A stretch of DNA of 64,000 nucleotides from Chloroflexota bacterium. GTDB lineage: Bacteria; Chloroflexota; UBA11872. Made by a program: the position numbers and the translations under genes. Location: positions 2,559 through 66,558 of the forward strand of contig JAPOXD010000021.1 of the NCBI GenBank assembly GCA_026707285.1, given 5' to 3'. This document shows positions 34,341-59,120 of this stretch, in pieces (the stretch's first letter is position 1; each line of letters opens with the position of its first letter). The notes under the pieces are model-generated. The model was given only the letters and a program-made list of their open reading frames with translations, was not told where the DNA came from and ran no database searches.

Positions 34341-34550
34341 ATCTTCTAGACCTTATGAACATTTATTCTCTTATATCGGAGTTGTTCGTTGCCAATGAGT
34401 CACGAATCAAGTAGCGCACAATGTTGCGCCTTCCATAATCAATCCATGCGTGTAGTGTTATAAGATACCAGTTGGAGGTTAGGCCAACGAATCTCGATCC
34501 AATTTCAAACCGTGCTAGAGTGCGAGCGGCTCATCGCAGAGTCTTGACAG

Positions 34551-35627
34551 TTGGCGACCCGACGTAGGCGGATCGAGAACGCTCCCTTGCCCTCCCCATT
34601 TCCCGAGGGCTGGTATTTCATCGCCAGCCGGGCGGACCTAGTCAAGTCCAGACTCATCCAGCGGACGTGGATGGGCGAGAACATTGTCGCCTGGTGTGAC
34701 GCCGACGGGCGCGTCTGCGTCGCCGAGGCCTTTTGCCCGCACCTGGGAGCCGACCTGGGGCCCGAAGCCGGAGGCCGGATCTGCGACGGCCGGCTCGTGT
34801 GTCCGTTCCACGGCTATGAGTTCGACGCCGGCGGCCAGTGCGTCGCCACACCCTATGCCGATCCACCCAAGACCGCGAAACTGCGGGTCTTCGAGACGCA
34901 GGAAGTGATCGGCCTGGTCTTCGCCTGGTGGGGGATCGAGGGACGGGCGCCGCAATGGAGTCTGCCGCCGTACCCGCGGGAGGAGCCCGGCTGGACCAAT
35001 TTCAAGATCAGGACCCTGCGCTTCGCCGGCCACCCCCAGGAGACGACGGAGAACTCCGTGGACCTGGGCCACCTGCGGTACGTCCACGGCTATGACAACG
35101 TCGACCGGGTCGAGCGGTTGTCGGTCGACGGGCCCTGTCTGAAGAGCGACTTCGACTTCAAGCGGGTTCGGACGATTGCCAAGGTCGCCAAGCTGACGTT
35201 CGACATCACCGCCAAAACTCGGATCTTCGGGCTGGGGTATTCGTACGTGAAGATTCGCGAGCACTCCATCGGGATGGATTTACGGTTTTGGGTGCTGTCG
35301 ACGCCGGTCGACGGCACGCTGATCGACATGTCGTTGGTCTCGCAGATGCGGGAGATACGCAGACCGAAGCGCCGGATTGCCGGTCTGGGGTTTCTCCCGG
35401 TGAAGCTTCGCGCGCCCCTGATGAACAGATTCATCGCGGCCATGCAAAACCGGGATGTCTTGCAGGACGTGGTCATCTGGGAGCGCAAGCAGCATCGCTC
35501 CCTGCCCCGCCTGTGTCGTTCGGACGGTGAGATCATGCCGTTTCGAACGTACTGTGCGCAGTTCTATTCCGACTCGCCTGAGGTTACGACTTCACTCCCC
35601 AAGCAATCCGGCGAAACCCTACAATGA
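34551..35627 (+). CDS. Rieske [2Fe-2S] non-heme-iron oxygenase, KshA/SdmA/Neverland-like architecture
   Basis: Rieske motif CPHLGADL..(17 aa)..CPFHGYEF; mononuclear iron motif DLGHLRYVHGYD (D-x2-H-x4-H); ~358 aa single-subunit type. Confidence 0.8.
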   Translation: MATRRRRIENAPLPSPFPEGWYFIASRADLVKSRLIQRTWMGENIVAWCDADGRVCVAEAFCPHLGADLGPEAGGRICDGRLVCPFHGYEFDAGGQCVATPYADPPKTAKLRVFETQEVIGLVFAWWGIEGRAPQWSLPPYPREEPGWTNFKIRTLRFAGHPQETTENSVDLGHLRYVHGYDNVDRVERLSVDGPCLKSDFDFKRVRTIAKVAKLTFDITAKTRIFGLGYSYVKIREHSIGMDLRFWVLSTPVDGTLIDMSLVSQMREIRRPKRRIAGLGFLPVKLRAPLMNRFIAAMQNRDVLQDVVIWERKQHRSLPRLCRSDGEIMPFRTYCAQFYSDSPEVTTSLPKQSGETLQ

Positions 35628-35715
35628 CCGGCCAAATTGGCCCTGACTCCCAGGTACCGAATCGGGACGCCATGCGCAACGCTTCCCGAACCAAATCGAG
35701 ATTGAAGGGCAGGCA

Positions 35716-38208
35716 ATGAATCAGGTACTCGGCAAGCTGAGCTCGCTGGTCACGGCCCGCCCGTGGATCACGCTCCTCGTCCTTCTTCTCGTCACCCTCG
35801 CGCTGGGAGCCGGAGCGGTCGTCCGCGCGCCGCCTCCGACGACCGCCGAGACGCTCCCCGACAACAGTCCCATTTCCGACGCGATGGCCGAGATCAATGA
35901 GCTCTTCGGGGACCACGGCGAGATCAGCGCCGTCACCCTCATTTTCCGCGGAGACGCGCTCACGCCCACCGGGCTCGCCCAGATGGATGCACTGATCAAC
36001 GACATCGTCGGCGACGCGGGGGTGCAGGAGCTCCTGGCTCCGACCAATCCGGTCTTTGCGCCGTCGGGGCTGATCAAGTTCGCGCTCCAGACCGACAGCT
36101 TCGATGCGGTGACACAGGCCCAAATCGATGCCGTCCGCGTACTCCCGGAGATTCAACCGGCCCTGGCGGCAATGACCGGCACCGACACCGACGGCACGCG
36201 GGTCGCGATCGGCAGTATCAGCTTGCTCGACACCGGCGACGAGCGCCTGAAGACCGCCGAGCGAACGATCAATGCACTGTCTAAATCTTCTGAGGGTCCG
36301 CTAAGCGCAAGCAGCGTGTCGTTCATCATCCTCGAGGACGAGTACACAGAGGCCACGGAGACGGGAATGGGTCCCCTCATCGGCGTGGCGTTCATTCTGA
36401 TCGCGTTGCTGCTGGTGCTTTTCATGCGCACGGTGTCCGACATGTTGCTGACGCTGGGCGGACTACTCGTGTCGATCATCTGGATCATTGGCGCCGAAGG
36501 CTGGCTCGGTCCGAATGCGCTGGGGCTCATCGGCCCGCCGAACTCGCTGACCACCATGGTGCCGATCATCGTGATCGGCCTCACGGTGGACTACGCCATT
36601 CAGACCATCTCGCACTACCGCGAGCAACGTCTCGAGGGCGGCGAGGTGCGCGAGGCCATTCGCACGGGACTGCGCATTGTGTCCGTCCCGCTGATGCTGG
36701 CGGCCATCACGACGATCGTCGGAATGTTGGCCAGCCTGTTTTCCCCGATCGGTATCGTGCGTGACTTCGGCGTCGTCGCGGGCCTGGGCATCGCGATGAG
36801 CCTGATCGTCATGCTGACGCTTGTCCCGGCCAGCCGGACGATCATGGACCGGCGACGCGAGAAGAAGGGTACGTTGAAGCCGCCGCGTCCAATCGTGCAC
36901 GCCTTGCCGGGCATCGAGCGACTGGCCGGCCTGCTGGGCCGCAGCGTGACCCGCCGGCCGGCGTACTACATCATCGCCGTGGCCGCGGTCACGATCGGGC
37001 TCGGAATCGCGTCAACCGGGCTGAAGTCTGAATTCAACATCCGCGATGTGCTGCCCCGGGGCGGGGCCGTGCTGGCGGATTTGGACACCCTGGAAGCGGC
37101 CATCGGCGGCACGGCCGAGGTGACCAATGTGCTCATCAAGGCCGAGGCCACCGAGACACGCACCCTGCTGAACATGCAGGACCTGACGACCGCCTTCGCG
37201 GACGAGACCCGGCGCCCGCCGGCGGCCGCAGGGCCGATTCAGACCTCGTTTGAATTGCTGCTGCGCGACTGGACGACCGACAGCGGCGTGCCGGGCGACA
37301 AGTACGACCCCGAGATCGCCGCTCTCTTCCAGGAGGCCTCGGCGGGCCTGCAGCTCGATCCTGAGCTGATGCAGGAAATCCTCGACCGGCTCGAGGCCAT
37401 GGACCCGGCCGTTGGTCGCCTGCTGGTCAACGATCCGCAGGGCGTCGACTCCCTGCTGGTTCAATTTCAGAGCTACGGGGGCGACCCCAACCTGACGACG
37501 GCGCTGCAGCAGGACCTCGAGGACCTGTGGGCCGGCGACGACGAGGACATCACCGCAACATCGGAAAGCATCATCTCGATCACAGTCACGGACTCGATTA
37601 CCGAGCGACAAACCGAGGCGATCGCCACGACGGTCGCGGCGGCCCTCACGGTGCTGGCCGTCTTCTTCTACTTGACGGTGCGGCAGCCGGCGCTGGCGGT
37701 TGTCGCCGTCGGGCCCATCGTGCTCGTGCTGATCTGTGTGCTGGGCACGATGGCGCTGCTGGGAATCCCCTACTCGCTCATCACGTCGATCATCACCGCG
37801 CTATCGATCGGAATCGGCGTGGACTACACCATTCACGTGATCCACCGCTATCGGGAGGAATTCGCGCGTCTGCGCAACCCGGAGGAAGCGGCGGTGCGCA
37901 CGCTGGCGACCACGGGATCGGCGCTGCTGGGATCGGCGATGACCACGGCGCTCGGCCTGGGCGTCCTGGCGGCTTCGCCGCTCCTTGCTTCCCAGCAGTT
38001 CGGTATCACCGCGGCGATCACGATCGCCTACTCGCTCATCGTCAGCATCGTGCTGGTGCCGCCGGCCATGACGGTGTGGGGCGCCTATCAAAACATGCGG
38101 CTGCGCTCGATGGTCGAGCGCGAGTGGGCCGACCTGGACGTGGCTATCGAAGAGGTGTATCGGCGCCACGAGGACGACGAACAGGCTTCGCCGACGACAG
38201 ATTCATGA
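35716..38208 (+). CDS. MMPL/RND-superfamily lipid transporter (HpnN/BstA-like architecture)
   Basis: two blocks of ~6 TM helices each followed by large periplasmic loops; 830 aa; MMPL-type conserved membrane blocks. Confidence 0.8.
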   Translation: MNQVLGKLSSLVTARPWITLLVLLLVTLALGAGAVVRAPPPTTAETLPDNSPISDAMAEINELFGDHGEISAVTLIFRGDALTPTGLAQMDALINDIVGDAGVQELLAPTNPVFAPSGLIKFALQTDSFDAVTQAQIDAVRVLPEIQPALAAMTGTDTDGTRVAIGSISLLDTGDERLKTAERTINALSKSSEGPLSASSVSFIILEDEYTEATETGMGPLIGVAFILIALLLVLFMRTVSDMLLTLGGLLVSIIWIIGAEGWLGPNALGLIGPPNSLTTMVPIIVIGLTVDYAIQTISHYREQRLEGGEVREAIRTGLRIVSVPLMLAAITTIVGMLASLFSPIGIVRDFGVVAGLGIAMSLIVMLTLVPASRTIMDRRREKKGTLKPPRPIVHALPGIERLAGLLGRSVTRRPAYYIIAVAAVTIGLGIASTGLKSEFNIRDVLPRGGAVLADLDTLEAAIGGTAEVTNVLIKAEATETRTLLNMQDLTTAFADETRRPPAAAGPIQTSFELLLRDWTTDSGVPGDKYDPEIAALFQEASAGLQLDPELMQEILDRLEAMDPAVGRLLVNDPQGVDSLLVQFQSYGGDPNLTTALQQDLEDLWAGDDEDITATSESIISITVTDSITERQTEAIATTVAAALTVLAVFFYLTVRQPALAVVAVGPIVLVLICVLGTMALLGIPYSLITSIITALSIGIGVDYTIHVIHRYREEFARLRNPEEAAVRTLATTGSALLGSAMTTALGLGVLAASPLLASQQFGITAAITIAYSLIVSIVLVPPAMTVWGAYQNMRLRSMVEREWADLDVAIEEVYRRHEDDEQASPTTDS

Positions 38209-38226
38209 CAGGCCGGGCGCGCTCGC

Positions 38227-39327
38227 GTGTCCCCAGTCGCCGAGCCGCTGCTTGAACCAGGCGTGCAACTCCCGCTAGCCAAGGAGCTTGGACAGCTCCG
38301 CGACCTCTCCAGGGGGCTGAAAGGCGCGTACCGCGGGGGAGACGCCAACCGTCGGGTGCGGCACTTCAGCGGATGGCTGCGCCGAGCAACGGCGGATGAC
38401 GACGGCGCGAGCGGCTACGACCACGCCAAAACCGTGAAGGAGTACTACGACCTCTGCGGCGAGTTCATGGTGTTCGGCTGGGGCGAATCGCTCCACTTCG
38501 CGCCGCTGGCGCCTCACGAAAGCCTGCAGGACTCCAAGACCAGGCATCAGCGGTTGATGATCGCCAAGCTGGAGCTGCGCGAGGGCATGACGGTGATCGA
38601 CGTGGGCTGCGGCATCGGCGGCCCGCTGCGTCGGGTCATCCGCGAGGCCGGCGTGAGCGTCCTCGGGGTCAACAGCAACGAGATCCAGTTGGAGAAGGCC
38701 AAGTCGCTCGACGCCGACGCGGGGCTCGACCACATGGCCGACTACCTCGCGTGCAGCTTCATGGACATGGAGGCGATCGCGGACGACACGTTCGACCGGG
38801 GCTACGCCATTGAGTCGACGTGCCACGCCCCGGACAAGGCCGGCGCGTTCGCCGAAATTTGCCGCGTGCTAAAGCCCGGCGCGCTCTTCTGGGGACAGGA
38901 AATGTGCCTGACGGACGCGTTCGATCCTTACGACAAGCGACACCGGCACATCGAACAGGAGCTGAAGTACTCCATCGCGCTCAAGGACATCGCGACGATG
39001 GGCCAGGTCAACCGCGACCTCGAATCGGCGGGATTTCAGGTCATCGAGGGCCGGGATTTGGCGGTCGCGGGGAACGGTCCGACCACTCCGTGGTACCAGC
39101 CCATGGTGAATCGGCGCCAAACGCTCGGCAACGCCCTGCACCGGACGCCCATCGGCCGCAAGGCGTTCATGGGGGCGTCGAGGCTGGTCGAGGCGGTGGG
39201 AGTCTTTCCGAAGGGCGCCACCGACGTCGTCGCCCTGATGCATCGCACCGCCAACGCCTATGTCGCCGGCGGCAGGGCCGGGATTTTCACGCCGCTGTAC
39301 TGTTTTCTGGCGCGCAAACCCGGGTAG
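38227..39327 (+). CDS. sterol C-24 methyltransferase (ERG6/SMT family) homolog
   Basis: YYDLCGEFMVFGWGESLHFAP (cf. ERG6 YYNLVTDFYEYGWGSSFHF), SAM motif VIDVGCGIGGP, AIESTCHAPDKAGAFAEICRVLKPGALF (cf. [28 protein letters not shown]), C-terminal IFTPLYCFLARKPG (cf. LFTPMMLFVARKPE); GTG start. Confidence 0.8.
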   Translation: MSPVAEPLLEPGVQLPLAKELGQLRDLSRGLKGAYRGGDANRRVRHFSGWLRRATADDDGASGYDHAKTVKEYYDLCGEFMVFGWGESLHFAPLAPHESLQDSKTRHQRLMIAKLELREGMTVIDVGCGIGGPLRRVIREAGVSVLGVNSNEIQLEKAKSLDADAGLDHMADYLACSFMDMEAIADDTFDRGYAIESTCHAPDKAGAFAEICRVLKPGALFWGQEMCLTDAFDPYDKRHRHIEQELKYSIALKDIATMGQVNRDLESAGFQVIEGRDLAVAGNGPTTPWYQPMVNRRQTLGNALHRTPIGRKAFMGASRLVEAVGVFPKGATDVVALMHRTANAYVAGGRAGIFTPLYCFLARKPG

Positions 39328-39360
39328 GCTCGCCGCGTCACTCGGGCGAGGCTCGGCGCC

Positions 39361-41385
39361 TTAAGCGGTCAGTTCGCGTCGCTGCTTGGCAATGCGGAAC
39401 TTCAGCTTCTTGCTCGGTTTGCTCGACGGCAGCGGGCTAAACCCGAGCTCGAAGTTCGGCGGCGACACCTCGATATCGAAGTGGCGCGCGATCATCAGCA
39501 CGTTGGCCGCCAGTTGCAGTTCCACCCACCCCGTCCCGAGGCACCGGTGCGTGCCCAGCCCATACGGGGCGTAACCAGGACCGCGATGCTCATTGCGCGG
39601 CGGCTGGTAGCGGTCGATGTCAAATTTGAAGGGTTCGGGAAACACGCTTTCCGTGTAGTGCGTGGCCGTCTGGGCAATGTGAAGCCGGGACCCGACGGGC
39701 AGCTCGTAGCCTTCGACCACGCACGAATTCATCACGTTCCGAATGGACATCGGGACGATCGGGTAGACCCGCAGGCACTCCATGAGAAAGCGATGGGTGA
39801 CGTCGATCTCTCGTGGCCTGAATGCCTCTCCACTTGGGTCGCCGTTGGCGAACAACGCATCGGCTTCGTCGCGGATCTTCGCGTAGATCTCCGGCTTCGA
39901 CGCCATGGCATACAACACGAAGCTGAACATGTCGCCAAGGTAGACGCTCGCGATCAGCGCGGCTGACAGCGCGAAGGGCAGATTCGACTCCGGGACGAAC
40001 TGCGGATCGGTCGCGTGCAGGCCGAGAAGGTCGTCCGCAAGATCGCGCGGACATCCAGCCCGCTGCGCGGGCGTGTGGCCAATCCGCACCCGGTTCAGCA
40101 GTGTGTCCAAAGACCTCATCCGGCGTTTCATGCCTGGGGTCCGCAGCATGAACTTGGGCAGCACCTTTGCGACGTGAACGCTGAGCGCCCGTTCCTTGAA
40201 CCGCGCCAAATCCGCAAAGACATCCTGGGAATCAACGCTGATAAGGAGCGGCGAAAGCTGCGCGTTGATCATTCGCCGGCACATCTCCGTTGCCTGGTAA
40301 GTTTCCCCAACCTCCCAGTCCGCCATATAGCCCCGTGCATGCCGGTACACCTGGTCTAGCTGTCCCGCGAGCCTGCCGCGGGAATACCCCGGGCCCAACG
40401 ACTTGCGAAGCCGAAAGTGATCGGCGCCATCCAGGGACGGCAATACGCCCGAGGCGCCATAGACCTTCTCGAAGTCCGCAAAATAGTCCCTCGTCCGCAG
40501 GTACCTGCGCCCGCTCCGATGGACCCAGCGGTTCACCTCGAGGCCGCCAACGAAGATCATTGGTTCCACAAGAGGCGGACGGATCATGAACACCGGCCCG
40601 TACTCTTCGGTGAGCTGCGCGAATAGGGCGGGAAAGTTCCCGTTGCGAACGTGCCGATTCAGCAGCAGCCGCCACAGCGGGACGGTCGGAATCTTCTTGG
40701 ACAGGGCGGAATGCTGGAGCAGCGGTGCGGCAAGGCTCTGTGACACGGCATCGGCGATCGACCGGCCGATCAAGTCCATATTGCAGATGAAGTGAATGCG
40801 CTCCTCATCCTGTTCTTCAAGCTGGAAGATGAAGCGAAACACATCACAGGTATTGACCAGGCAGATGATGATCACGTCTCGCGGATCGGGAATTTCGTTG
40901 TTGAAGATCGCCTTGCCGATGCGGGTCTTCACAAACTGCGCCGCGGATCGCTCTGGGGAGCTTTCGAACATATCCCCCTGCCGCGCGGCCCGGGCAAGCG
41001 TCCAGAACCCGCCCTCGTGATGATCCAGAATCCCCATGTCAACCAAGCGATCCAGCGTGAGATCGATGATCGATTCGGCGCGGGGCGCCAGCCGTTCGAT
41101 CCAATACTGGGCGTTATGCCGGCCCGGCTCGCTCGCAATCTCCTCGAGGATGGGGTCCAGCGTCGGGTCGCCCGTTTCCGCCGCATCGACGAGAAACAGC
41201 GACTCGATATCCGTGTCGATGCGCGACATGAGCGAGAGCTCGGCGAGCGCCGCGCCGACGACGGCGCAGTTCAGACGCCATCCTGGAACCTGGTGAAAGT
41301 AGCCGCTCTCCTCATTGAGGAGCATCAGGAGAAGCTCTTCGGAAAGGCTTAACTGACGGGTCGACGTACTGTCTGCGACGGCCAT
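39361..41385 (-). CDS. fusion protein: N-terminal GOLPH3/GPP34-family domain plus C-terminal cytochrome P450
   Basis: N-terminus LSLSEELLLMLLNEESGYF...GAALAELSLMSRID matches the GPP34 signature; C-terminus carries EXXR and the heme-thiolate loop FDIDRYQPP...YAPYGLGTHRCLGTGWV; ATG at 41385 with aagga RBS, although the ORF opens with TTG at 41451. Confidence 0.7.
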   Translation of the reverse strand: MAVADSTSTRQLSLSEELLLMLLNEESGYFHQVPGWRLNCAVVGAALAELSLMSRIDTDIESLFLVDAAETGDPTLDPILEEIASEPGRHNAQYWIERLAPRAESIIDLTLDRLVDMGILDHHEGGFWTLARAARQGDMFESSPERSAAQFVKTRIGKAIFNNEIPDPRDVIIICLVNTCDVFRFIFQLEEQDEERIHFICNMDLIGRSIADAVSQSLAAPLLQHSALSKKIPTVPLWRLLLNRHVRNGNFPALFAQLTEEYGPVFMIRPPLVEPMIFVGGLEVNRWVHRSGRRYLRTRDYFADFEKVYGASGVLPSLDGADHFRLRKSLGPGYSRGRLAGQLDQVYRHARGYMADWEVGETYQATEMCRRMINAQLSPLLISVDSQDVFADLARFKERALSVHVAKVLPKFMLRTPGMKRRMRSLDTLLNRVRIGHTPAQRAGCPRDLADDLLGLHATDPQFVPESNLPFALSAALIASVYLGDMFSFVLYAMASKPEIYAKIRDEADALFANGDPSGEAFRPREIDVTHRFLMECLRVYPIVPMSIRNVMNSCVVEGYELPVGSRLHIAQTATHYTESVFPEPFKFDIDRYQPPRNEHRGPGYAPYGLGTHRCLGTGWVELQLAANVLMIARHFDIEVSPPNFELGFSPLPSSKPSKKLKFRIAKQRRELTA

Positions 41386-41593
41386 CCGACTTAGTCCTTG
41401 TGCTTGCCCTAAGCTCGCAAGGGCCTGTCGTCCCTGTATCGCATTATACAACCGCGACTGCCCAGCGGCAACGAGATATCAAAAGACGAATCAACGATAA
41501 AGCAGGATTAGTATTTCGACATATCTTCGGGAGTCACTTCAACAAAACTCATACACTCAAGCGACTCATATTCAGTCGACCGACGTTCGAGTA

Positions 41594-42961
41594 TTAGCCT
41601 TTTGCCTTCTTGAACCGCCAACCGTGCATGATGCTGCCGTAATGGTTGAATGACCGCCTTGCCCTGGCGTCGTCAAATGGATAGACGGCCCCGATCTGCG
41701 TTGCCGCGGCGAGACCACTCACAAAGCAAGTTTCCTGACTATTGACCAGCGTGTGCGCGCCGCAGTGCCACGTCCGCCTTCTGCCCTGAATGAACTGGAA
41801 GAGGTTCACAAGCCAGGCCACGTGGCGCACGTCGTGCACGATGTGTTGGAACCACCATCTTCCAACGATCTTTTGACCATCGATCTCGCTGATTGGATTG
41901 TAGGTAACCAGACACGGTTTGTCTGACCGATTGGCCCATGGTTGCTGGTTGTGCATGATGTACGTAATTTCATAGTTGTCGGGTCGCGCGCCATACTGCT
42001 CAATATGGTTGCTCCGCGTCTCCAGCGGTTTCACGGCGTTGTCCGGAAGCACTGAAGAATCCGAATGAATCACCGTGTGATTGTGGAGCTCGCTCTCATA
42101 TCGAATCGAAGACAGGATATAGCGCTCGAGCAGCGTGGGTTTATCGAGAATCATCAAGGTCTGGTTCGCATTGCACGCGAATACCACCTCGTCGAACGCC
42201 TCCGTCACGCCGCCTTCGTCCTCAACGACGACGCCCGAGGACTGCCGGTACACCTTTCTGACCGGACGGTTGAGGTAGAGCTTGTCTCGAAAACCCGCTG
42301 ACAAGTTCTCGTAGATGCGGCGCGTCCCCTGGTCCCATGTCTGCATTGGGGTGGCGGTTTCGATATCGAAGAAGTCGAGGTACCTCGCGAAGAGCGCGGC
42401 GGGCATGTCGAACACGTTGGTCGCCATCAGGAAATTGACGAACATGGGCTTGAGAATTTTGTACCGAAAGTCGCCGGAGAATCCCCCCAGATTCAGCACC
42501 GTGCCCATGCTGATGTAGTTGAACGGGTTGAGCGCGTTGAGCAACTTCGACTGGGTACGGCTCAGCCAGCCAATCCAGTGCAGGCGTCGCAAGAGGCGCT
42601 GGAACTTTGCGATCTCGACGTGCAGCTGGTCTCTGATCTCGGAGTCAAAGTCGTGGGCGTAGATTTGGCCGCGGTACTTCACGCTGTAGCTGAACCTGGT
42701 ATCGACCAAGTCGATGCCGAACTGCTTCATCAGCAGGACGATGTGGTCGTACACCGACGGAATGCAGGCGGTTACGGAAATGTCGAACGGAATCGAGCTG
42801 CCGTCATCCTGCGGCATATCGGCGGTGATCGCGTTTCCGCCGATCCGGTCCCGCGCTTCGAACAGACGGAAATCGAAGCGGTCCGGGTGGTGATGCAGGC
42901 CCCATGCGGCAGCTAGCCCTGAGATCCCTCCGCCGATGATGGCTATCCGCCGCAGCGTCAT
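41594..42961 (-). CDS. FAD/NAD(P)-binding amine-oxidase-like oxidoreductase (COG2907 type, usually partnered with cyclopropane-fatty-acyl/SMT-type methyltransferases)
   Basis: Rossmann IAIIGGGISGLAAAW..FEARDRIGGN; ..IPFDISVTACIPSVYDHIVLLMKQFGIDLVDTRFSYSV.. block characteristic of COG2907 proteins; noticeably lower GC than flanks. Confidence 0.65.
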   Translation of the reverse strand: MTLRRIAIIGGGISGLAAAWGLHHHPDRFDFRLFEARDRIGGNAITADMPQDDGSSIPFDISVTACIPSVYDHIVLLMKQFGIDLVDTRFSYSVKYRGQIYAHDFDSEIRDQLHVEIAKFQRLLRRLHWIGWLSRTQSKLLNALNPFNYISMGTVLNLGGFSGDFRYKILKPMFVNFLMATNVFDMPAALFARYLDFFDIETATPMQTWDQGTRRIYENLSAGFRDKLYLNRPVRKVYRQSSGVVVEDEGGVTEAFDEVVFACNANQTLMILDKPTLLERYILSSIRYESELHNHTVIHSDSSVLPDNAVKPLETRSNHIEQYGARPDNYEITYIMHNQQPWANRSDKPCLVTYNPISEIDGQKIVGRWWFQHIVHDVRHVAWLVNLFQFIQGRRRTWHCGAHTLVNSQETCFVSGLAAATQIGAVYPFDDARARRSFNHYGSIMHGWRFKKAKG

Positions 42962-43026
42962 CCTCTCCCGCCGGTTCGCGGCGCCGCCGAGCTCGCGGTT
43001 GCCGCGCTCTTCCGGTCTGAATACGT

Positions 43027-43070
43027 AACACGCCCGGAGGGATTCGAACCCCCGACCCCTGGTTCCGAAG
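43027..43070 (-). other. 44-nt duplicate of the 3' part of tRNA-Arg (anticodon loop to acceptor stem, no CCA): att-like remnant
   Basis: 43029..43070 identical to 44540..44581 of the intact tRNA-Arg; immediately followed by a 30-nt element (43071..43100) that recurs at 44474..44503. Confidence 0.7.
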
Positions 43071-43326
43071 GCCCGATCCGGCCATCTGATGAGGCTCGAT
43101 TGGACCCGATGTGAATCGGTCCAAACCTGTTAGCGAAGATCGTTCGCCCGATGGCGTGGGACCTCGTCCGGTCAAAGTCAATCCAAAACTAGCGCAAAGC
43201 CCGGGGGATCTCCGCCGGCTTGCTTCCAGGAGATCAGCGCTCTTCGAGAGCCTCAGCACTGGTCTGCAGTCGCCACCGCAGCGCTGGGGAATTGGCGCGG
43301 GCAGGGGGAATCTCAGACTTCCCCGG

Positions 43327-44274
43327 CTAGCGGTCGGGCCGCATCACGCGCAGGGCCTGGGGCACGACCGTGATCGTGACCGGCGGGTGTGCAACGAACT
43401 CACCGTCGGCCCAGACTCCGACCTTCCGGTTTGCCGCCAGCTGCACCTGCCGGATCCGGTGATACGCCACCGCGGGATGCCCCACATGCGATCCGGCGAG
43501 AGCGCGGGGCAGCATCCGAAGGATCTCCCACTTGGGCATGCGCCGGACCAGGCAGAGATCCAGGCGACCGTCGTCAGGACGCGCGTCCGGCGCGACCCGG
43601 ATCCGCCCGCCATAGCGGCTCGTGTTGCCCACGGCCGCCAGGAGGAGTTGCCCGCGGAAGGCGCCGAAGTCGCCCCGCACCGTGGCGTCGGGCCACGCGT
43701 AGGTGCGAAGCGTGACGGCTGCGCCGTAGAGGTACGCGCCCGACGCGCCCAGGATGGCTGGGGCCCGCCCATCCGCCACGAACTCCGCGACCTCACTGTC
43801 GAACCCGAACGTCGCGACCGTGATGAAATACGCGCTCCCGCGTTCCTGGCTCACCGGATCGCTGCCGACCACATGGCCCAGGTCCAGCGTCTGGGTCCGG
43901 TGGTGCAGGAGGCCCGTGATCGCCGCGTCGGGCCCTGCCGGCAGGCCCAGCGCGTGGGCCAGATCGTTACAGCGACCGGCGGGCAGGATGCCCAACTCGA
44001 GCTCCTGCCGGGACGACGCGGGCGCCGCCATGATGCCGTTCACGACCTCGTGCACGGTCCCGTCGCCGCCAGACGCCACAATCCGCGTCGAGCCCGCCTC
44101 GACGGCTTCCCGGGCCAGCCTCGCGGCCGCTCCCGGAGCGTCAGTGGCGCGCACGTCGGCCTCCGTGCCCTGTGCGTCCAGCCTGGACGACAGACTAGTC
44201 GCCCGCGCCAGGGCACGGCCGCGCCCAGCGCGTCCGTTCGCAATGATCGTCCACCGATCCTGCGAGCGATGCAT
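43327..44274 (-). CDS. diacylglycerol/lipid kinase catalytic-domain protein (YegS/DagK family)
   Basis: ..WTIIANGRAGRGRA..; ..RIVASGGDGTVHEVVNGI.. (GGDGT motif) and C-terminal pattern of DAGK_cat family. Confidence 0.8.
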   Translation of the reverse strand: MHRSQDRWTIIANGRAGRGRALARATSLSSRLDAQGTEADVRATDAPGAAARLAREAVEAGSTRIVASGGDGTVHEVVNGIMAAPASSRQELELGILPAGRCNDLAHALGLPAGPDAAITGLLHHRTQTLDLGHVVGSDPVSQERGSAYFITVATFGFDSEVAEFVADGRAPAILGASGAYLYGAAVTLRTYAWPDATVRGDFGAFRGQLLLAAVGNTSRYGGRIRVAPDARPDDGRLDLCLVRRMPKWEILRMLPRALAGSHVGHPAVAYHRIRQVQLAANRKVGVWADGEFVAHPPVTITVVPQALRVMRPDR

Positions 44275-44536
44275 CGTCTAGCGCCGCCGATCGTTCCGCC
44301 GCATGGCGACCCCGCCGACCCAGCGCCGGCTCGGCGCTCGCGTTCGTGACATCTGGATGGTGTCGCCCCTTGGTCCGTCCTGGCGCGCAATCTTTCCCCG
44401 GGCGCACGATCGTCGCAACCCGCCGATCGGCCTTACAACGATGGGGCCAAGTGGGAGAGTGACGCCTCAGAAGGCCCGATGCGGCCATCTGATGAGGCTC
44501 GATCACCGGATGGTCGCGCAACAAGTTTGGGACAAA

Positions 44537-44613
44537 TGGCACGCCCGGAGGGATTCGAACCCCCGACCCCTGGTTCCGAAGACCAGTGCTCTAATCCGCT
44601 GAGCTACGGGCGC
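44537..44613 (-). tRNA. tRNA-Arg (anticodon UCG)
   Basis: reverse complement GCGCCCGTAGCTCAGCGGATTAGAGCACTGGTCTTCGGAACCAGGGGTCGGGGGTTCGAATCCCTCCGGGCGTGCCA; cloverleaf, CCA encoded. Confidence 0.85.
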
Positions 44614-44643
44614 CTGGCGGCATGACGATTCTAGCGAGGCGCG

Positions 44644-46257
44644 CTATCCGGCGACGGGTGCGTCGTCGCCGATCGGGGCGGGGACATAGGATTCGGCGTC
44701 GCCCAGCATCTCGAAGGGGCCTTCGATCCACCGGACGGGATCGACGGCGGCGCCCGCGACGTACATCTCCCAATGGATGTGGGGACCGGTCGAGCGACCG
44801 GTTGAGCCCACCAGACCGACGGTGGCGCCGCGCTCGACCACCTGACCGAGCAAGACCGAGAAGTCGTGCAGGTGATAGAAGAGCGTGTAGACGCCGAAGC
44901 CGTGATCCAGGATCACCGTGTTGCCACGGATCGTGAGCGGCCCGACAAAGGCGACGCGTCCTCGATTTGGCGCGGGGATTGGAGCTCCGGTCGGCGCCGC
45001 GTAGTCGACGCCTTCGTGCACCGACATGAATGATCCGGGCTGCAAGGTGCGGCGCTCGCCGTAAGGCGAAGTGACCCGGCCGACGCCGGGCCGCTGGAAC
45101 GGCCCGGACCACAGCGGCCCCCCGCTCACCCGCTGCACGATGGTGTGGAGAAACTCGCGCTCTTCCTGTGCGACGGCCTCGTCGAGCAAGTCTTCGTGGC
45201 TTTCCGGAATATGGAACTCCGCCGAGGGGTACTCGCGCTCCGCAAGCTCGACCGAGATGTCGACCATGCGCTCGCCGACGCTCACTTGCAGGTCCTGCGG
45301 GCCTGTCATGGCCGTGGAGGCCGTCCCAACCATGGCGTGCCACGTGCCGTCGAGGCAGAGCAGCGGGGCGGCTTGCCCATTCCAGGTCACCGACACGCCG
45401 GGGGCCGCCGTGTGCACTTGGATGCCGATCGCGTCGCCCGGCTGCGGCGTCTCGGAGTTGATGGTCACAAGGTCCGCATCGGCGGGCGGCGCGTGGGGGT
45501 CGATGGGCGTGGTCGCCGCCGCCGGATAGAGGCCGGCTTCCTTGGCCAAATCACCCGAATTGGCGAAGACGACCTGGCCGGCGCGGGCCCACGGCACGTC
45601 CACCAGCCACTGCTGCAGCACGGCTCGCTGCGTCCGCATCGCCACCATGCTGCCGAAGTCGCCGTAGGCGATGGGCAGCCCGAGCCGCGTGAGCCAGCTG
45701 GGCACGGCGAAGTAGGCGTCGCGAATGGCCGGATTCACGTCCAGCAGCGCCAGGTGGTTCTCCATGATCTGGGAAAACGGCACGCCGGCGTCCTCGGGCA
45801 GCGTGGCGTGCCTGGGCACCTGCCGGAACGATTCCAGCCAATCGTCGTGGCCCTCTCGATTCATGACGTCCATGGTGTTGGCCACGTTGACGCCGTCCTT
45901 GGACGGGTCCCACTGCAGCACCATCTTTTGAAACGCTTGCACGAGAAAGCCATGCAGGAGGAAGCGGTGCGACACCGGGTAGCCGACCACCTGGATGCCG
46001 CCGAGCTCCTGAAACGCCGTCCAGAACTTGGCGGCGTCGTCATCCCGCACGGGATAGCCGCCGCCGGTGTCGCCGCCCGTCTGGGTAAAGAAGCGGCCAC
46101 CGTTGATCGGAAAGTCGGGCCCGAAACCGCAGGCCGTGCCGAACGGTACTTCGGGCACCTCTGCCGCCAGCGGCACGGGCAGCGCAGCCAGCGCGAGGGC
46201 GAGGACGAGAGCCACGGCCACACGGCGCATGGCGGACCGAGTGCGGGGGGATTTCAC
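44644..46257 (-). CDS. secreted M23-family metallopeptidase (LytM/lysostaphin-type) with large N-terminal domain
   Basis: signal peptide MRRVAVALVLALALAALPVPLAA; C-terminal M23 motifs HEGVDYAAP...HLHDFSV..G..VG.VGSTGRSTGPHIHWEM. Confidence 0.8.
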   Translation of the reverse strand: MKSPRTRSAMRRVAVALVLALALAALPVPLAAEVPEVPFGTACGFGPDFPINGGRFFTQTGGDTGGGYPVRDDDAAKFWTAFQELGGIQVVGYPVSHRFLLHGFLVQAFQKMVLQWDPSKDGVNVANTMDVMNREGHDDWLESFRQVPRHATLPEDAGVPFSQIMENHLALLDVNPAIRDAYFAVPSWLTRLGLPIAYGDFGSMVAMRTQRAVLQQWLVDVPWARAGQVVFANSGDLAKEAGLYPAAATTPIDPHAPPADADLVTINSETPQPGDAIGIQVHTAAPGVSVTWNGQAAPLLCLDGTWHAMVGTASTAMTGPQDLQVSVGERMVDISVELAEREYPSAEFHIPESHEDLLDEAVAQEEREFLHTIVQRVSGGPLWSGPFQRPGVGRVTSPYGERRTLQPGSFMSVHEGVDYAAPTGAPIPAPNRGRVAFVGPLTIRGNTVILDHGFGVYTLFYHLHDFSVLLGQVVERGATVGLVGSTGRSTGPHIHWEMYVAGAAVDPVRWIEGPFEMLGDAESYVPAPIGDDAPVAG

Positions 46258-55826: not shown

Positions 55827-55902
55827 GGGCCGATAGCTCAGTCGGAAGAGCGCCGCACTCGCATTGCGGAGGTCGTGGGTTCGAGTCCCATTCGGTCCAC
55901 CA
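55827..55902 (+). tRNA. tRNA-Ala (anticodon CGC)
   Basis: GGGCCGATAGCTCAGTCGGAAGAGCGCCGCACTCGCATTGCGGAGGTCGTGGGTTCGAGTCCCATTCGGTCCACCA; G3:U70 identity pair; CCA encoded. Confidence 0.85.
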
Positions 55903-56037
55903 AGTGATGTCGTTTGTAGGCGCCAGAATCCATTCCGACGACCTTACGCGTATGCTTCTAAGGCGTGCACACATTGCGCTCGCTAGGCTGGGCCGCTCGC
56001 GTGTGCTACATTCCCGTACCACAGATACGGTCAGGAA

Positions 56038-56718
56038 ATGTTGCACATGCCAAGCGGACTCGAAGCACCCCGAGAATCCTCGGGGTGCATTGTGTTGACC
56101 GGCGTCGACGCCATCGCCGCGCTGGCGAAGTTGGGGCTCGACCATCCGGATGACGCTGATCGAATTCGGTCCTTCGTCAGGGTTGCAGTGCGCACGGCTC
56201 GGGAAAAGCAAGTTGGCTACGCCTCAAACTATGCGGGCATCGTCGCGCACAACGAAGTCCTCCACGGACTTTGCAGCATCCTACGCGACCGAGGTTGGAA
56301 TGAGCTTGAACGCAAGAATCACCTATTGATTGCCCATCCCGATTCGGGGGTTACTTTCGGCGTATCGTCGGCCGATCAAGACACCGGGATTCGCCAAGGG
56401 GACCCATGTACCCGGTACCCGAAAGGTCAAATGACCAGGCGGGTGGTGATCGCCAACCATCTTCGGTTTGATCAAACCACGCCGACATTTCCCAAGCCGG
56501 CACTGCTTCGGCGTAACACCTATCTGCTGCTGTTTTACGATGACATCGACCGGAAGCAGATTCGCTTAGAGATTTCACGACCGCTTTTCATGGGTTCCAC
56601 CAATCGCCTAGCCGGCTGGGATCGCCGGAACATTCTTCCTCCAATCGACCTGTCGGGTGCGCCTGCGATCAAACAGCCAGGACCCGTCAGCTTCGACGTG
56701 AGAGTGAGACGCAATTAG
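56038..56718 (+). CDS. hypothetical protein (islet cargo, no recognisable family)
   Basis: 226-aa ORF; lower GC than the genome average; lies between two tRNA-Ala copies. Confidence 0.4.
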   Translation: MLHMPSGLEAPRESSGCIVLTGVDAIAALAKLGLDHPDDADRIRSFVRVAVRTAREKQVGYASNYAGIVAHNEVLHGLCSILRDRGWNELERKNHLLIAHPDSGVTFGVSSADQDTGIRQGDPCTRYPKGQMTRRVVIANHLRFDQTTPTFPKPALLRRNTYLLLFYDDIDRKQIRLEISRPLFMGSTNRLAGWDRRNILPPIDLSGAPAIKQPGPVSFDVRVRRN

Positions 56719-56977
56719 CGAATATACAGCTTCGCGGCTTAGCCCGACACGGCTGGAGGTCGCCCGCAAGCGGCGTGGCCTGACTAGCAAGGCCCTCGCA
56801 GAAGCTGTCAGTCTCTCGGCATGGAGTCTAAGGGCCTATCAGCGTGGTGAGCGTACGCCTACTGCCGACACGGTCCGGCGCCTAAGTGAAGCTGTTGATT
56901 TCCCGGAGGCCTTCCTGACGGCTCCTGAGATTGACAAACTCGCACCAAGGTCCATTAGTTTCCGCTCGCTGCATCGC

Positions 56978-57832
56978 ATGTCACAGCGCGTGCGCGACAA
57001 GGCAGTCGCGACCGCGACAATCGCCATTCAGTTGGCCACCTGGGTTGACGGGGAGTTTGTCTTACCGAAGCCCAAGATACCTGACTGGCAGTCTGTACCA
57101 CCGGAGGAAGCTGCGTTGGGGCTTCGCCAGAATTGGGACGTGGGGATGGACCCGTTGCCCAATATGGTCCACTTGTTGGAGTCACGTGGCGTAAGGGTGT
57201 TCTCGTTGGTCGAGGAGTGTCGAGACCTCGATGGCCTGTCGCTTTGGCACGATTCGACACCTTACGTATTTCTCAATACGACTAAACCAGCAGCCAGAAG
57301 TCGATTTTCTGCGGCCCACGAGCTTGGACACCTATTGCTCCATCGGGCCTTCGGTCCTTCCGGTCATCGGACGACCGAGGCGGAAGCTAACCGGTTTGCT
57401 TCCGCATTCCTAATGCCGCGAGACAACATCATTGATAGTGTGCCCAAGGACAGCACGTTGAAAGAACTTGAGCATCACGCACGCACGTGGAACGTTTCGG
57501 TTCAGGCTCTCATCTATCGTATGCACGAAATCGGCATGACGACCCGGTGGCGCTACCGGTCATTGTTTATCGGCTACAACCGACGCCCGTTAGACGACTC
57601 AGGGCCAGGCGAGACGTCCAAGGTTTATCGGCAGGTGTTTGACCTGTTGCGCGCACAGGGTCGAGACCGATCCGATGTGGCCGACGCCATTCACCTGCAC
57701 CTCGAAGATCTTCATGCGCTAGTGTTCGGCCTCGTCCCAACCATCCTTCCAGACGATCCAAGTCCCAGCCAGGTGCCCTATGACTCCATTCCGGAGACGG
57801 TGACCGGTACAGGTCCCCAACTTGTGCCCTAA
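56978..57832 (+). CDS. ImmA/IrrE-family (DUF955) zinc metallopeptidase domain; the open frame continues upstream into an XRE-type HTH domain (from ~56740) that has no canonical start codon
   Basis: HEXXH motif AAHELGHLLLH and typical ImmA/IrrE context; upstream in-frame translation ..LEVARKRRGLTSKALAEAVSLSAWSLRAYQRGERTPTADTVRRLSEAVDFPEAF.. is a classic XRE HTH. Confidence 0.65.
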   Translation: MSQRVRDKAVATATIAIQLATWVDGEFVLPKPKIPDWQSVPPEEAALGLRQNWDVGMDPLPNMVHLLESRGVRVFSLVEECRDLDGLSLWHDSTPYVFLNTTKPAARSRFSAAHELGHLLLHRAFGPSGHRTTEAEANRFASAFLMPRDNIIDSVPKDSTLKELEHHARTWNVSVQALIYRMHEIGMTTRWRYRSLFIGYNRRPLDDSGPGETSKVYRQVFDLLRAQGRDRSDVADAIHLHLEDLHALVFGLVPTILPDDPSPSQVPYDSIPETVTGTGPQLVP

Positions 57833-57906
57833 CCACTCTAGGCTGCTGGTTGAGGACGGTTGAGGCATCTACGGCGCTGTCGGAGATTTGTTCGGAGGGG
57901 CCAGGC

Positions 57907-57978
57907 GGCCGATAGCTCAGTCGGAAGAGCGCCGCACTCGCATTGCGTAGGTCGTGGGTTCGAGTCCCATTCGGTCCA
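57907..57978 (+). pseudogene. second, slightly degenerate copy of tRNA-Ala(CGC): probable att-site duplicate
   Basis: identical to 55831..55902 except G->T in the anticodon stem (C27:U43 mismatch) and an altered 5' end (GGCGGCCGA vs GGGCCGA) that disrupts acceptor pairing. Confidence 0.6.
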
Positions 57979-58130
57979 CCAGCACTTCTTGAACATGCCG
58001 TTGCAACACGCCAACGATTGCCCGATGCCACGGACCTCCCATGGGACGGGCTCCTTTCGTCAGTTCAGTAGGGTATTGGTACGATAGAGCCACATCGTAA
58101 AGGCTCTTAACTTTGCGGAGGCAATAGTCA

Positions 58131-59120
58131 ATGGAAAGCTCCATTTACACACCTGAAAGCTACACGGATCGAATACGACATGTACTCGGCAACTGCCTCA
58201 TCGAGACGAGTGTTTCTCAAAGTGAGAAGCTCATCGGCAAAGTACGTGATCGGTACGATCTCGGGGACCGTTTAGCACTCATCACCACCGACCGTCAGAG
58301 TGCCTTCGACCGGGTGCTGGCCGCTATCCCCTTCAAAGGCCAGGTCCTCAACATGACGAGCGCATGGTGGTTTGAACAGACCCGCCATATCGTGCCAAAT
58401 CACGTTTTATCCGTTCCCGACCCAAACGTCACAATTGCGAAGAAATGCACCGTTTTCCCAATTGAGTTCGTGGTGCGTGGATACATTACCGGAACCACCA
58501 GCACCGCCCTCTGGACGGTCTACCAGAGTGGTCAGCGGAACTATTGTGGAATCGACCTGCCCGAAGGCCTGGTCAAAAACCAGAAGCTTCCGACGAATTA
58601 TCTGACACCGACCACCAAGGCGGAGGATCACGACCGTCCGATCAGCCCGGACGAGATCGTGTCCGAGAACTGGATGACGGCCGATGATTGGGAACAATGC
58701 AGTCGCATCGCCCACGAGCTCTTCGCTTTCGGTCAAGCCAAGGCAGCCGAGCACGGCCTGGTTCTCGTGGATACCAAGTACGAAATGGGCCATGACGAAA
58801 ACGGTGAGATCCTTTTGATTGACGAGATTCATACCCCTGACTCCAGTCGCTACTGGATCGCCGACTCGTATCAGCATCGCATGCGCGAGGGACGGGAACC
58901 CGACAACGTCGACAAGGAATTCCTCCGGCTATGGTTCACGGAGAATTGCAATCCCTACGAGGATGAGGTCCTCCCGCCGGCGCCGGACGACCTTGTCGTC
59001 GAGCTTTCACGACGCTACATCTACCTGTACGAGAAGATCACCGGTCGCTCTTTCGAGTTTCCAGGGACGGACCAGCCCATCGACACGCGATTGGCCAGCA
59101 ACCTTCAAGGAATTGCATGA
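58131..59120 (+). CDS. purC: phosphoribosylaminoimidazole-succinocarboxamide (SAICAR) synthase, long eukaryote/ADE1-type
   Basis: block-by-block match to ADE1-type PurC: IGKVRDRYDL..LALITTDRQSAFDRVL, FPIEFVVRGYITGT, YLTPTTKAEDHDRPISP, LVLVDTKYEMGHDENGEILLIDEIHTPDSSRYW, DKEFLRLWF. Confidence 0.8.
   Translation: MESSIYTPESYTDRIRHVLGNCLIETSVSQSEKLIGKVRDRYDLGDRLALITTDRQSAFDRVLAAIPFKGQVLNMTSAWWFEQTRHIVPNHVLSVPDPNVTIAKKCTVFPIEFVVRGYITGTTSTALWTVYQSGQRNYCGIDLPEGLVKNQKLPTNYLTPTTKAEDHDRPISPDEIVSENWMTADDWEQCSRIAHELFAFGQAKAAEHGLVLVDTKYEMGHDENGEILLIDEIHTPDSSRYWIADSYQHRMREGREPDNVDKEFLRLWFTENCNPYEDEVLPPAPDDLVVELSRRYIYLYEKITGRSFEFPGTDQPIDTRLASNLQGIA

Follow-up and report, generated by a model that had tools for sequence, protein, structure and literature searches.

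A decayed integration scar with a stranded lipid-kinase gene at a tRNA-Arg(UCG) of an uncultured Chloroflexota lineage, probably built from two tandem elements

The stretch of DNA analysed here (the window) comprises 64,000 nucleotides (nt) of a Chloroflexota bacterium (GenBank assembly GCA_026707285.1, contig JAPOXD010000021.1, positions 2,559 to 66,558), and carries next to its tRNA-Arg(UCG) gene a single gene for a predicted YegS/DgkB-type lipid kinase, enclosed by a displaced 3' fragment of the same tRNA gene and by two 30-nt direct repeats, X and X'. This arrangement is probably a composite scar of tyrosine-integrase integration at the tRNA gene, involving two elements in tandem (E_a and E_b) whose integrase has been lost and which have left the kinase gene stranded. 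The favoured reading distinguishes two neighbouring scars: that of the younger E_b, which would have collapsed almost completely, and that of the older E_a, which would carry the kinase. Comparisons were made with related loci from Chloroflexota metagenome-assembled genomes (MAGs) and metagenomes, designated L002-L036; the names of the isolates hint at a possible sponge or marine metagenome origin for these bacteria.

The tRNA-Arg(UCG) gene is intact (44537-44613, minus strand; detected by ARAGORN, and with 66.7 bits by the Rfam tRNA model). A 42-mer, CACGCCCGGAGGGATTCGAACCCCCGACCCCTGGTTCCGAAG, has exactly two copies in the window, one within this gene (44540-44581) and one displaced (43029-43070), with none expected in shuffled sequences. 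The segment spans the tRNA gene from the anticodon loop to the discriminator base, and the displaced fragment, identical at 42/42 nt, lies in direct orientation and bounds the insert together with the intact gene. Its first bases, CTTCGGA, are those of the 7-nt anticodon loop, which would fit the anticodon-centred class of crossovers, and the CCA position beside it reads TTA (43026-43028). The first-pass annotation of this DNA, made from its letters alone, had reported an exact copy without CCA, which is indeed present, and had given it 44 nt, a length now corrected to 42. It had also described X and X' as 30-nt direct repeats with one mismatch and a 33-nt spacer between X' and the tRNA, which is borne out: X (43071-43100) and X' (44474-44503) differ at 1 of 30 bases, they are the sole copies in the window at up to three mismatches, and none is expected by chance in shuffles. 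The repeat extends to 37 nt with two mismatches (43064-43100 and 44467-44503); X abuts the inner side of the fragment, X' stands 33 nt from the tRNA 3' end, and the interval between them has a G+C content of 0.685, like that of the genome.

That the segment has been inserted is indicated by comparison of occupied and empty sites. A gene for an M23 peptidase, located just upstream of the tRNA, served as anchor in 17 Chloroflexota MAG loci whose M23 proteins range from 96% down to 50% identity, and the same tRNA-Arg directly follows the peptidase gene in all of them (17/17). Both empty and occupied sites were found by this comparison, which the first-pass annotation had proposed. In L005 the site is empty, with an amine-oxidase gene beginning 68 nt past the tRNA, and the alignment of the window's fragment, flank and amine-oxidase start to the tRNA, flank and amine oxidase of L005 shows 88.6% identity over 299 nt. 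The fragment is thus the original 3' end of the tRNA gene, and everything between it and the present tRNA has been inserted. L018 and L011 form a second, clean pair of occupied and empty sites, with flanks that are 95-97% identical (the other occupied loci are described below). The 2.26-kb insert of L018 lacks an integrase and has an interior unrelated to that of the window, with open reading frames (ORFs) that gave no Pfam or PHROG match, and it ends in the same junction of arm, X and fragment; this junction is 87% identical to that of the window over 107 nt in hosts whose M23 proteins are only 51% identical.

The family of elements to which these inserts can be attributed is still intact in other relatives. 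Behind this tRNA, L008, L034 and L036 have a complete integrase (Phage_integrase, 435 aa), preceded by an excisionase-like HTH_17 gene, and their cargo exceeds 10 kb, with an MmeI-like gene in the element of L036; L035, whose host context is different, carries an integrase of 76% identity at this tRNA, and L007 and L009 retain integrase remnants. The near (P') arm, which lies between the tRNA and the integrase, starts with CCCTCCCAAACCTGTTG in L008, L018 and L034-L036, and the 33-nt spacer of the window, followed by the first 8 nt of X', is collinear with the arm of L034 and nearly identical to it. Short motifs recur in the arms, namely CCAAAC(C/T)TGTT in the near arm, which appears inverted as AACAGGTTTGG in the far (P) arm, CTAGTTTTG-type motifs, and a repeated CATCGGG; these shared motifs would fit predicted arm-type binding sites. 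The first-pass annotation had recognised the footprint of a tyrosine recombinase at a tRNA gene from which no integrase remains, a proposal that the empty site of L005, the excisionase-integrase (xis-int) elements with a homologous arm in L008, L034 and L036, and the L018/L011 pair all uphold. Searches of the window with the family integrases by tblastn returned no integrase similarity other than in tRNA-derived or arm-derived stretches. The examined parts of the parent elements carry only xis-int and defence or unfamiliar genes, with no conjugation or mobilisation genes in those of L034 and L036, and in IMG/VR the L008 integrase has relatives of at most 34% identity only.

A separate observation concerns the integrase reading frame itself (L008 12113-13420; L034 and L036 10001-11308), which meets no stop before the tRNA and extends across the near arm to terminate within the tRNA gene, as also listed in public gene calls (435 aa). 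The C-terminal tail of the protein would consequently be predicted to differ between the integrated and the circular state, and by inspection the frame at the X-fragment junction of the window would stop at TGATGA inside X.

Since X is confined to the tRNA-Arg site and belongs to homologous arms, it can be regarded as element-arm sequence beside the crossover core, and not as a genome-wide repeat: at up to three mismatches no further copy exists in the 64-kb window, and no occurrence of X away from this tRNA was met in 40 related loci. More precisely, X appears to be the core-adjacent end of the family's far arm, so that X and the fragment would together constitute the right attachment site, attR. 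Three other identities for X were considered and rejected. A dispersed repeat of the REP (repetitive extragenic palindromic) or MITE (miniature inverted-repeat transposable element) kind does not agree with two copies in 64 kb and an exclusive location at tRNA-Arg in the related loci; within the window and those loci this also answers the concern, voiced with the first-pass annotation, that X might be a common repeat. A terminator, promoter or stable hairpin is contradicted by the absence of consensus sites and by fold energies that lie within those of shuffles. Finally, an Rfam scan of 42500-45000 at E<=1 matched the tRNA alone, which speaks against X plus fragment being a tRNA-like gene.

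Read from the tRNA gene leftwards, all on the minus strand, the locus can be laid out as follows, with E_b in front of E_a.

44537..44613, minus strand: intact tRNA-Arg(UCG), found by ARAGORN and Rfam; the same tRNA lies downstream of the M23 peptidase in 17/17 relatives.
44540-44581, minus strand: copy of the 42-nt identity segment in the left attachment site (attL), the 3' part of the tRNA, presumably brought by the most recently integrated element.
44504..44536, minus strand: 33-nt spacer "s", the putative start of the tRNA-proximal (P') arm, collinear with and near-identical to the P' arms of L034, L008 and L036.
44474..44503, minus strand: X', 30 nt, read as the fusion point of the collapsed E_b; orthologous copies in L002 and L028.
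44460..44473, minus strand: candidate cryptic third tRNA remnant of 14 nt, CTTCTGA plus GGCGTCA, with ~29-31 nt between them deleted.
44275..44459, minus strand: putative left end of the older element E_a, starting with CTCTCCCA, a truncated family P' start (CCCTCCCA), and continuing into the kinase upstream region.
43327..44274, minus strand: intact gene of a predicted YegS/DgkB-type lipid kinase (315 aa; DAGK_cat and YegS_C), cargo that would be stranded inside E_a.
43101..43326, minus strand: kinase 3' region and far (P) arm of E_a, homologous to the L018 arm, L009 12022-12108 and L025 9018-9250.
43071..43100, minus strand: X, the last 30 nt of the P arm at the crossover core, forming attR with the fragment; same X-fragment junction in L018 14934-15005.
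43029..43070, minus strand: displaced original 3' part of tRNA-Arg, a 42/42 match in the orientation and position expected of attR.
42962..43028, minus strand: native downstream flank of the tRNA, into the amine-oxidase gene of the sterol cluster, by alignment to L005.

The first-pass annotation had treated X and X' as repeats bracketing one element, of which the part concerning X, at the attR end, stands. The two repeats probably do not represent opposite ends of a single element; X' most likely comes from a second element, since collapsed, that lies on the tRNA side of the kinase element. Read in tRNA orientation, X' begins with 8 nt (ATCGAGCC) that prolong the P' arm, and its remainder matches the end X of the P arm. 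The spacer holds CCAAACTTGTT, the inverted counterpart of far-arm AACAGGTTTGG, and the conserved arm block at 43101-43196, some 100 nt to the left of X, holds CTAGTTTTGG, AACAGGTTTGG and the repeated CATCGGG. Downstream of X', again in tRNA orientation, are found in succession CTTCTGA, which matches the anticodon-loop 7-mer at 6/7 positions, GGCGTCA, which is the acceptor 3' end GGCGTGCCA with a 2-nt gap, and C(T/C)CTCCCA, the near-arm start of the family. A match to "tRNA 3' end plus family P' start" of this quality was reached by at most 1-4 of 2000 shuffles of the L002 ortholog. The 14-nt tRNA remnant (44460-44473) and the conserved element arm (43101-43196) had both been missed in the first pass. 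A parallel is offered by L009, where a near arm is fused to a far arm at the shared motif CTCTAGTTTTG in a collapse analogous to that of E_b.

From these features we infer the order of events, the mechanism of the collapse and the arrival of the kinase gene as cargo. The xis-int family would target the anticodon loop of tRNA-Arg(UCG) and bring its own copy of the tRNA 3' part. E_a would have integrated first, pushing the original tRNA 3' part (43029-43070) and the native flank to the far side, behind a far arm ending in X; deletions would then have removed the integrase and the greater part of the near arm of E_a, the lipid-kinase gene being kept. E_b would have integrated later into the regenerated tRNA and collapsed by recombination between short ATCGAGCC-type repeats present in both arms, so that the 33-nt spacer and X' remained, and the tRNA copy displaced by E_b would have decayed to the 14 nt at 44460-44473. 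Nothing at the locus is mobile by itself; since both attachment (att) sites of E_a are recognisable, E_a resembles a cis-mobilisable element (CIME), and could at most be moved in trans by a related integrase.

Several observations weigh against this history. The two-element model leans on short matches (7, 7 and 8 nt), and the match that is so rare among shuffles of the L002 ortholog is reached by ~45 of 2000 shuffles for the window and is not significant for L028. Beyond its first 8 nt the left end of E_a has no significant similarity to the P' arms of the family; an origin of the kinase upstream region in the integrase tail or near arm of L008 or L007 was likewise rejected, as nothing is significant past those 8 nt. 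No natural far arm (attR) of an integrase-bearing element was retrieved, so that the assignment of X to the far-arm end draws only on the window, L018 and L025. In L025 the left-end sequence of E_a directly follows the CCA of the intact tRNA, and spacer and X' are missing, a state that might have recorded the locus before their insertion. Neighbour-joining trees nest L025 within the group that bears spacer and X', which led to the rejection of this possibility: the L025 state is a secondary loss and does not supply a pre-insertion state. The genomes with an S9-peptidase gene in this interval lack the fragment and part of the native flank, such that a vertical history of the window's intact attR requires recombination between lineages. 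Lastly, neither an excision product nor a cognate integrase of this genome was seen, the search for the latter covering the window.

A single element is somewhat unlikely and is nevertheless the best surviving alternative. Spacer, X' and the kinase upstream region would then be one natural near arm, X and X' paralogous arm repeats flanking the core in the phage-type attachment site attP, ~78 nt apart in the circle, and the kinase the only interior gene left after integrase loss. This explanation calls for fewer events; it agrees with the position of X', since the arms of L034, L008 and L036 carry an X-like stretch (ATCGAGCC...GCCAAATCGGCCTT) equally far from the tRNA, and with the folding of X', where CTTCTGA completes a 10-bp imperfect palindrome (TCAGATGGCC / GGCCTTCTGA). 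The secondary nature of the L025 loss, as deduced from the trees, is also in keeping with it. However, the GGCGTCA-CCCTCCCA succession after CTTCTGA would have to be a chance match (at the above frequency of at most 1-4/2000 for L002), the central 22 nt of X' are far nearer to the far-arm X of the window and L018 than to the near arm of intact elements, and the near arm of L018 has no good copy of X. It is these features that leave two tandem scars as the favoured interpretation.

The kinase gene (43327-44274, minus strand) is the only gene with family support between the repeats, as first described, and both of its domains are full length: DAGK_cat (PF00781, 1.4e-29) covers residues 7-135 and profile positions 1-125 of 125, and YegS_C (PF19279, 1.2e-32) covers residues 153-311 and positions 2-157 of 158. 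Orthologs of 87-93% identity occupy the same tRNA in L002, L025, L028 and L029. Between the window and L002 the kinase gene has 93.6% nt identity and the flanking genes 90-94%; this equal divergence indicates that the insert is as old as the split between the two and has been vertically inherited, rather than acquired recently. The first-pass annotation had reasoned that relatives sharing the arrangement, kinase included, would point to an ancestral and not an inserted gene; the kinase is indeed shared across L002, L025, L028 and L029 and is not a recent arrival, but the empty site of L005 identifies it as inserted. The ratio of nonsynonymous to synonymous substitutions (dN/dS) is 0.22-0.30 against the orthologs, and the kinase is under purifying selection. 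It has the appearance of an expressed, selected, host-like gene now fixed in the subclade, and its sequence is present on an ENA metagenome contig. Other Chloroflexota have homologs of ~50% identity, located not at a tRNA but within ordinary lipid operons (with PlsY and an acyltransferase/reductase in L031). A 67% homolog sits in a region rich in mobile-element genes.

The age of the kinase insert bears on a further alternative, in which the 1.4-1.5 kb unit is a miniature non-autonomous integrative element that is still active, moved in trans by a family integrase encoded elsewhere. In its favour are the recognisable att sites, the preservation of the fragment at 42/42 nt next to a CCA that has changed to TTA, the integrase-less 2.26-kb insert with the same arms in L018, whose close relative L011 is empty, and arms that are much better conserved than host genes (87% nt vs 51% aa identity). 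These are outweighed by the presence of the kinase unit at the same place across the subclade with a divergence equal to that of its flanks, as expected of vertical inheritance, by the absence of a cognate integrase from the window, by a near arm of E_a that the favoured two-scar model reduces to 8 nt, and by the absence of the X-fragment junction (AGATGGCCGNATCGGGNCTTCGGAACCAGGGG) from IMG/VR (0 matches) and from JGI metagenome contigs (0 matches), so that present activity is distinctly unlikely. The 42-nt fragment by itself is found on six JGI metagenome contigs, all of them intact tRNAs in unrelated contexts and without family arms. A broader, admittedly doubtful proposal is that there exists a family of integrase-less "mini-islands" of 1.4-2.3 kb, consisting of two attP arms and one or a few cargo genes, that xis-int of full-length relatives move between tRNA-Arg sites and divergent hosts; these would be a counterpart of MITEs among integrase elements, and arm-to-arm collapse, as in E_b and L009, would be their final stage. 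The idea that no mobile element is involved, the pattern reflecting either a tRNA 3' half that was duplicated locally or a kinase flanked by some generic repeat or regulatory hairpin (a terminator or REP-like structure), can appeal to the missing integrase of the window and to the small hairpin that X' can form, and is most improbable in view of hairpin energies equal to those of shuffles, the lack of terminator-like or promoter-like sites, the restriction of X to this locus in the window and 40 related loci, and the site-specific integration indicated by the empty site, by the integrase-bearing relatives with homologous arms and by the L018/L011 pair.

The interval between the tRNA and the amine-oxidase gene holds different content in each relative, and is therefore an integration hot spot: kinase and S9 peptidase in L002, L028 and L029, S9 peptidase alone in L003 and L004, kinase and type I-E CRISPR-Cas past the tRNA-Arg in L025-L027, and, in L006, a DarT-like/ADP-ribosylglycohydrolase/UvrD module between two full tRNA copies. 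L029 keeps a further near-arm start between kinase and S9 peptidase, which suggests that tandem accretion is general at this tRNA. Some of these loci are of interest in their own right. In L006 (11670-16020) two complete tRNA-Arg(UCG) genes, each including ~25 nt of upstream sequence, flank a 4.2-kb insert (G+C 0.59) that codes for an ADP-ribosylglycohydrolase-domain protein, a DarT-like ssDNA ADP-ribosyltransferase and a UvrD-like helicase; this looks like a defence-type module that apparently arrived by another mechanism, or with another element class, at the same tRNA. In L025 (9250-16873; also in L026 and L027) the far arm of the kinase element is cut 9 nt into X, and the cut is followed by a type I-E CRISPR-Cas locus, made up of an array (repeat CGGTTCACCCCCACGCGCGTGGGGATCAC) and a complete cas operon, which occupies the position that in the window belongs to the fragment and the sterol-cluster start. 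In L029 (1-1640, a JGI contig) the tRNA and M23 gene are replaced by AT-rich sequence and a GAF-PAS histidine-kinase gene in front of the block of kinase, S9 peptidase and amine oxidase; the breakpoint lies inside X' and is a rearrangement or an assembly join at an element arm.

To the left of the fragment lies a sterol-type cluster (34500-42961) with a G+C content of 0.56-0.65 vs ~0.68 for the genome (low stretches 0.56-0.59), which codes for an amine-oxidase/desaturase-like protein, a GPP34-P450 fusion ORF, a sterol methyltransferase with Sterol_MT_C, an MMPL/Patched-like transporter and a Rieske KshA-like oxygenase. The first-pass annotation had suggested that serial integrations at this tRNA could have built the whole lipid island, cluster included. 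This is not supported: the att-bounded segment does not include the cluster, which is situated beyond the fragment on the chromosomal side and abuts the native tRNA flank in L005 and L006, and no further tRNA-Arg fragments or arm copies that could bound it are present in the window. Serial integration did take place, but it is limited to the stretch from the tRNA to the amine-oxidase gene. The cluster stands next to tRNA-Arg in the closest relatives (L002, L004, L005, L006 and L028) and was not found downstream of the tRNA in the clade of 50% identity; window genes left of 43 kb have no counterparts within ~9.5 kb downstream of the tRNA in L007-L018, L034 and L036. An older island origin of the cluster is conceivable, as distant relatives differ downstream of the tRNA, but the footprint gives no evidence for it.

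Elsewhere in the window, two full-length tRNA-Ala(CGC) genes (55828-55902 and 57907-57981; 75 nt, 99% identical) flank a ~2-kb insert (55903-57906, G+C 0.58) with one ORF that has no family matches (56038-56718) and one that is IrrE/Peptidase_M78-like (56978-57832). The purC gene (58131-59120) follows the second tRNA-Ala, and in L008 purC adjoins a single tRNA-Ala, which represents the empty site. The insert is another small integrated element, belonging to a type in which the tRNA is duplicated in its entirety.

The locus documents tRNA-Arg(UCG) as a hot spot, and its integrase family, with empty-site controls in an uncultured Chloroflexota lineage. It also illustrates a route of decay, in which elements would be reduced by arm-to-arm collapse and integrase loss to scars with useful genes trapped in them, in this case a lipid kinase under purifying selection. 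For annotation, the adjacent sterol-type cluster should be placed outside the att-bounded insert, and claims of a horizontal origin for that cluster consequently cannot lean on this footprint.

Compared with known systems, the locus shares with Islander-type tRNA islands (Williams 2002; Hudson et al. 2015, PMC4383910) a tRNA regenerated by the element, a displaced 3' fragment from the anticodon loop that marks the far end in the correct orientation, an integrase adjoining the tRNA in intact family members, and tandem arrays at one tRNA. It differs in having no integrase, on account of which the Islander filter would reject it, and in its size of ~1.5 kb with a single gene and one tandem member reduced to 63 nt. 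Of the usual signs of an island, an integrase inside the element and beside the tRNA gene is missing from the window and present at the same tRNA in L008, L034, L035 and L036, and an unoccupied site with a precise junction is provided by L005 for the window and by L011 for L018. CIMEs are decayed derivatives of integrative and conjugative (ICE) or integrative and mobilisable (IME) elements which have kept attL and attR and lost the genes for integration and transfer (Pavlovic et al. 2004, quoted in Guedon et al. 2017, PMC5704250). The window element resembles them in lacking an integrase, in its recognisable att sites, in its tandem position with a related element at the same target and in having arisen by deletion. 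Its attR consists of arm, X and the 42-nt fragment, and its attL of the regenerated tRNA with a near arm homologous to that of L034, although in the two-element model this outer pair belongs to two elements and E_a itself retains only 8 nt of near arm; recombination and transfer genes are lacking, the kinase being the sole ORF with family matches. It departs from CIMEs in having no demonstrated conjugation-related ancestry and in its host, an uncultured Chloroflexota and not a Firmicute. Within the same phylum, the tandem ssrA-specific islands of Dehalococcoides (McMurdie et al. 2011, PMC3146451) likewise result from repeated site-specific integration into a single small-RNA gene, whose 3' end recurs as direct repeats, and carry metabolic cargo; they differ in that their target is the tmRNA instead of tRNA-Arg and that they have kept their own integrases. 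The cargo itself agrees with the YegS/DgkB/BmrU lipid kinases in having both domains at full length. The window therefore holds a decayed, CIME-like tRNA island, a well-known kind of genomic scar that calls for no new mechanism.

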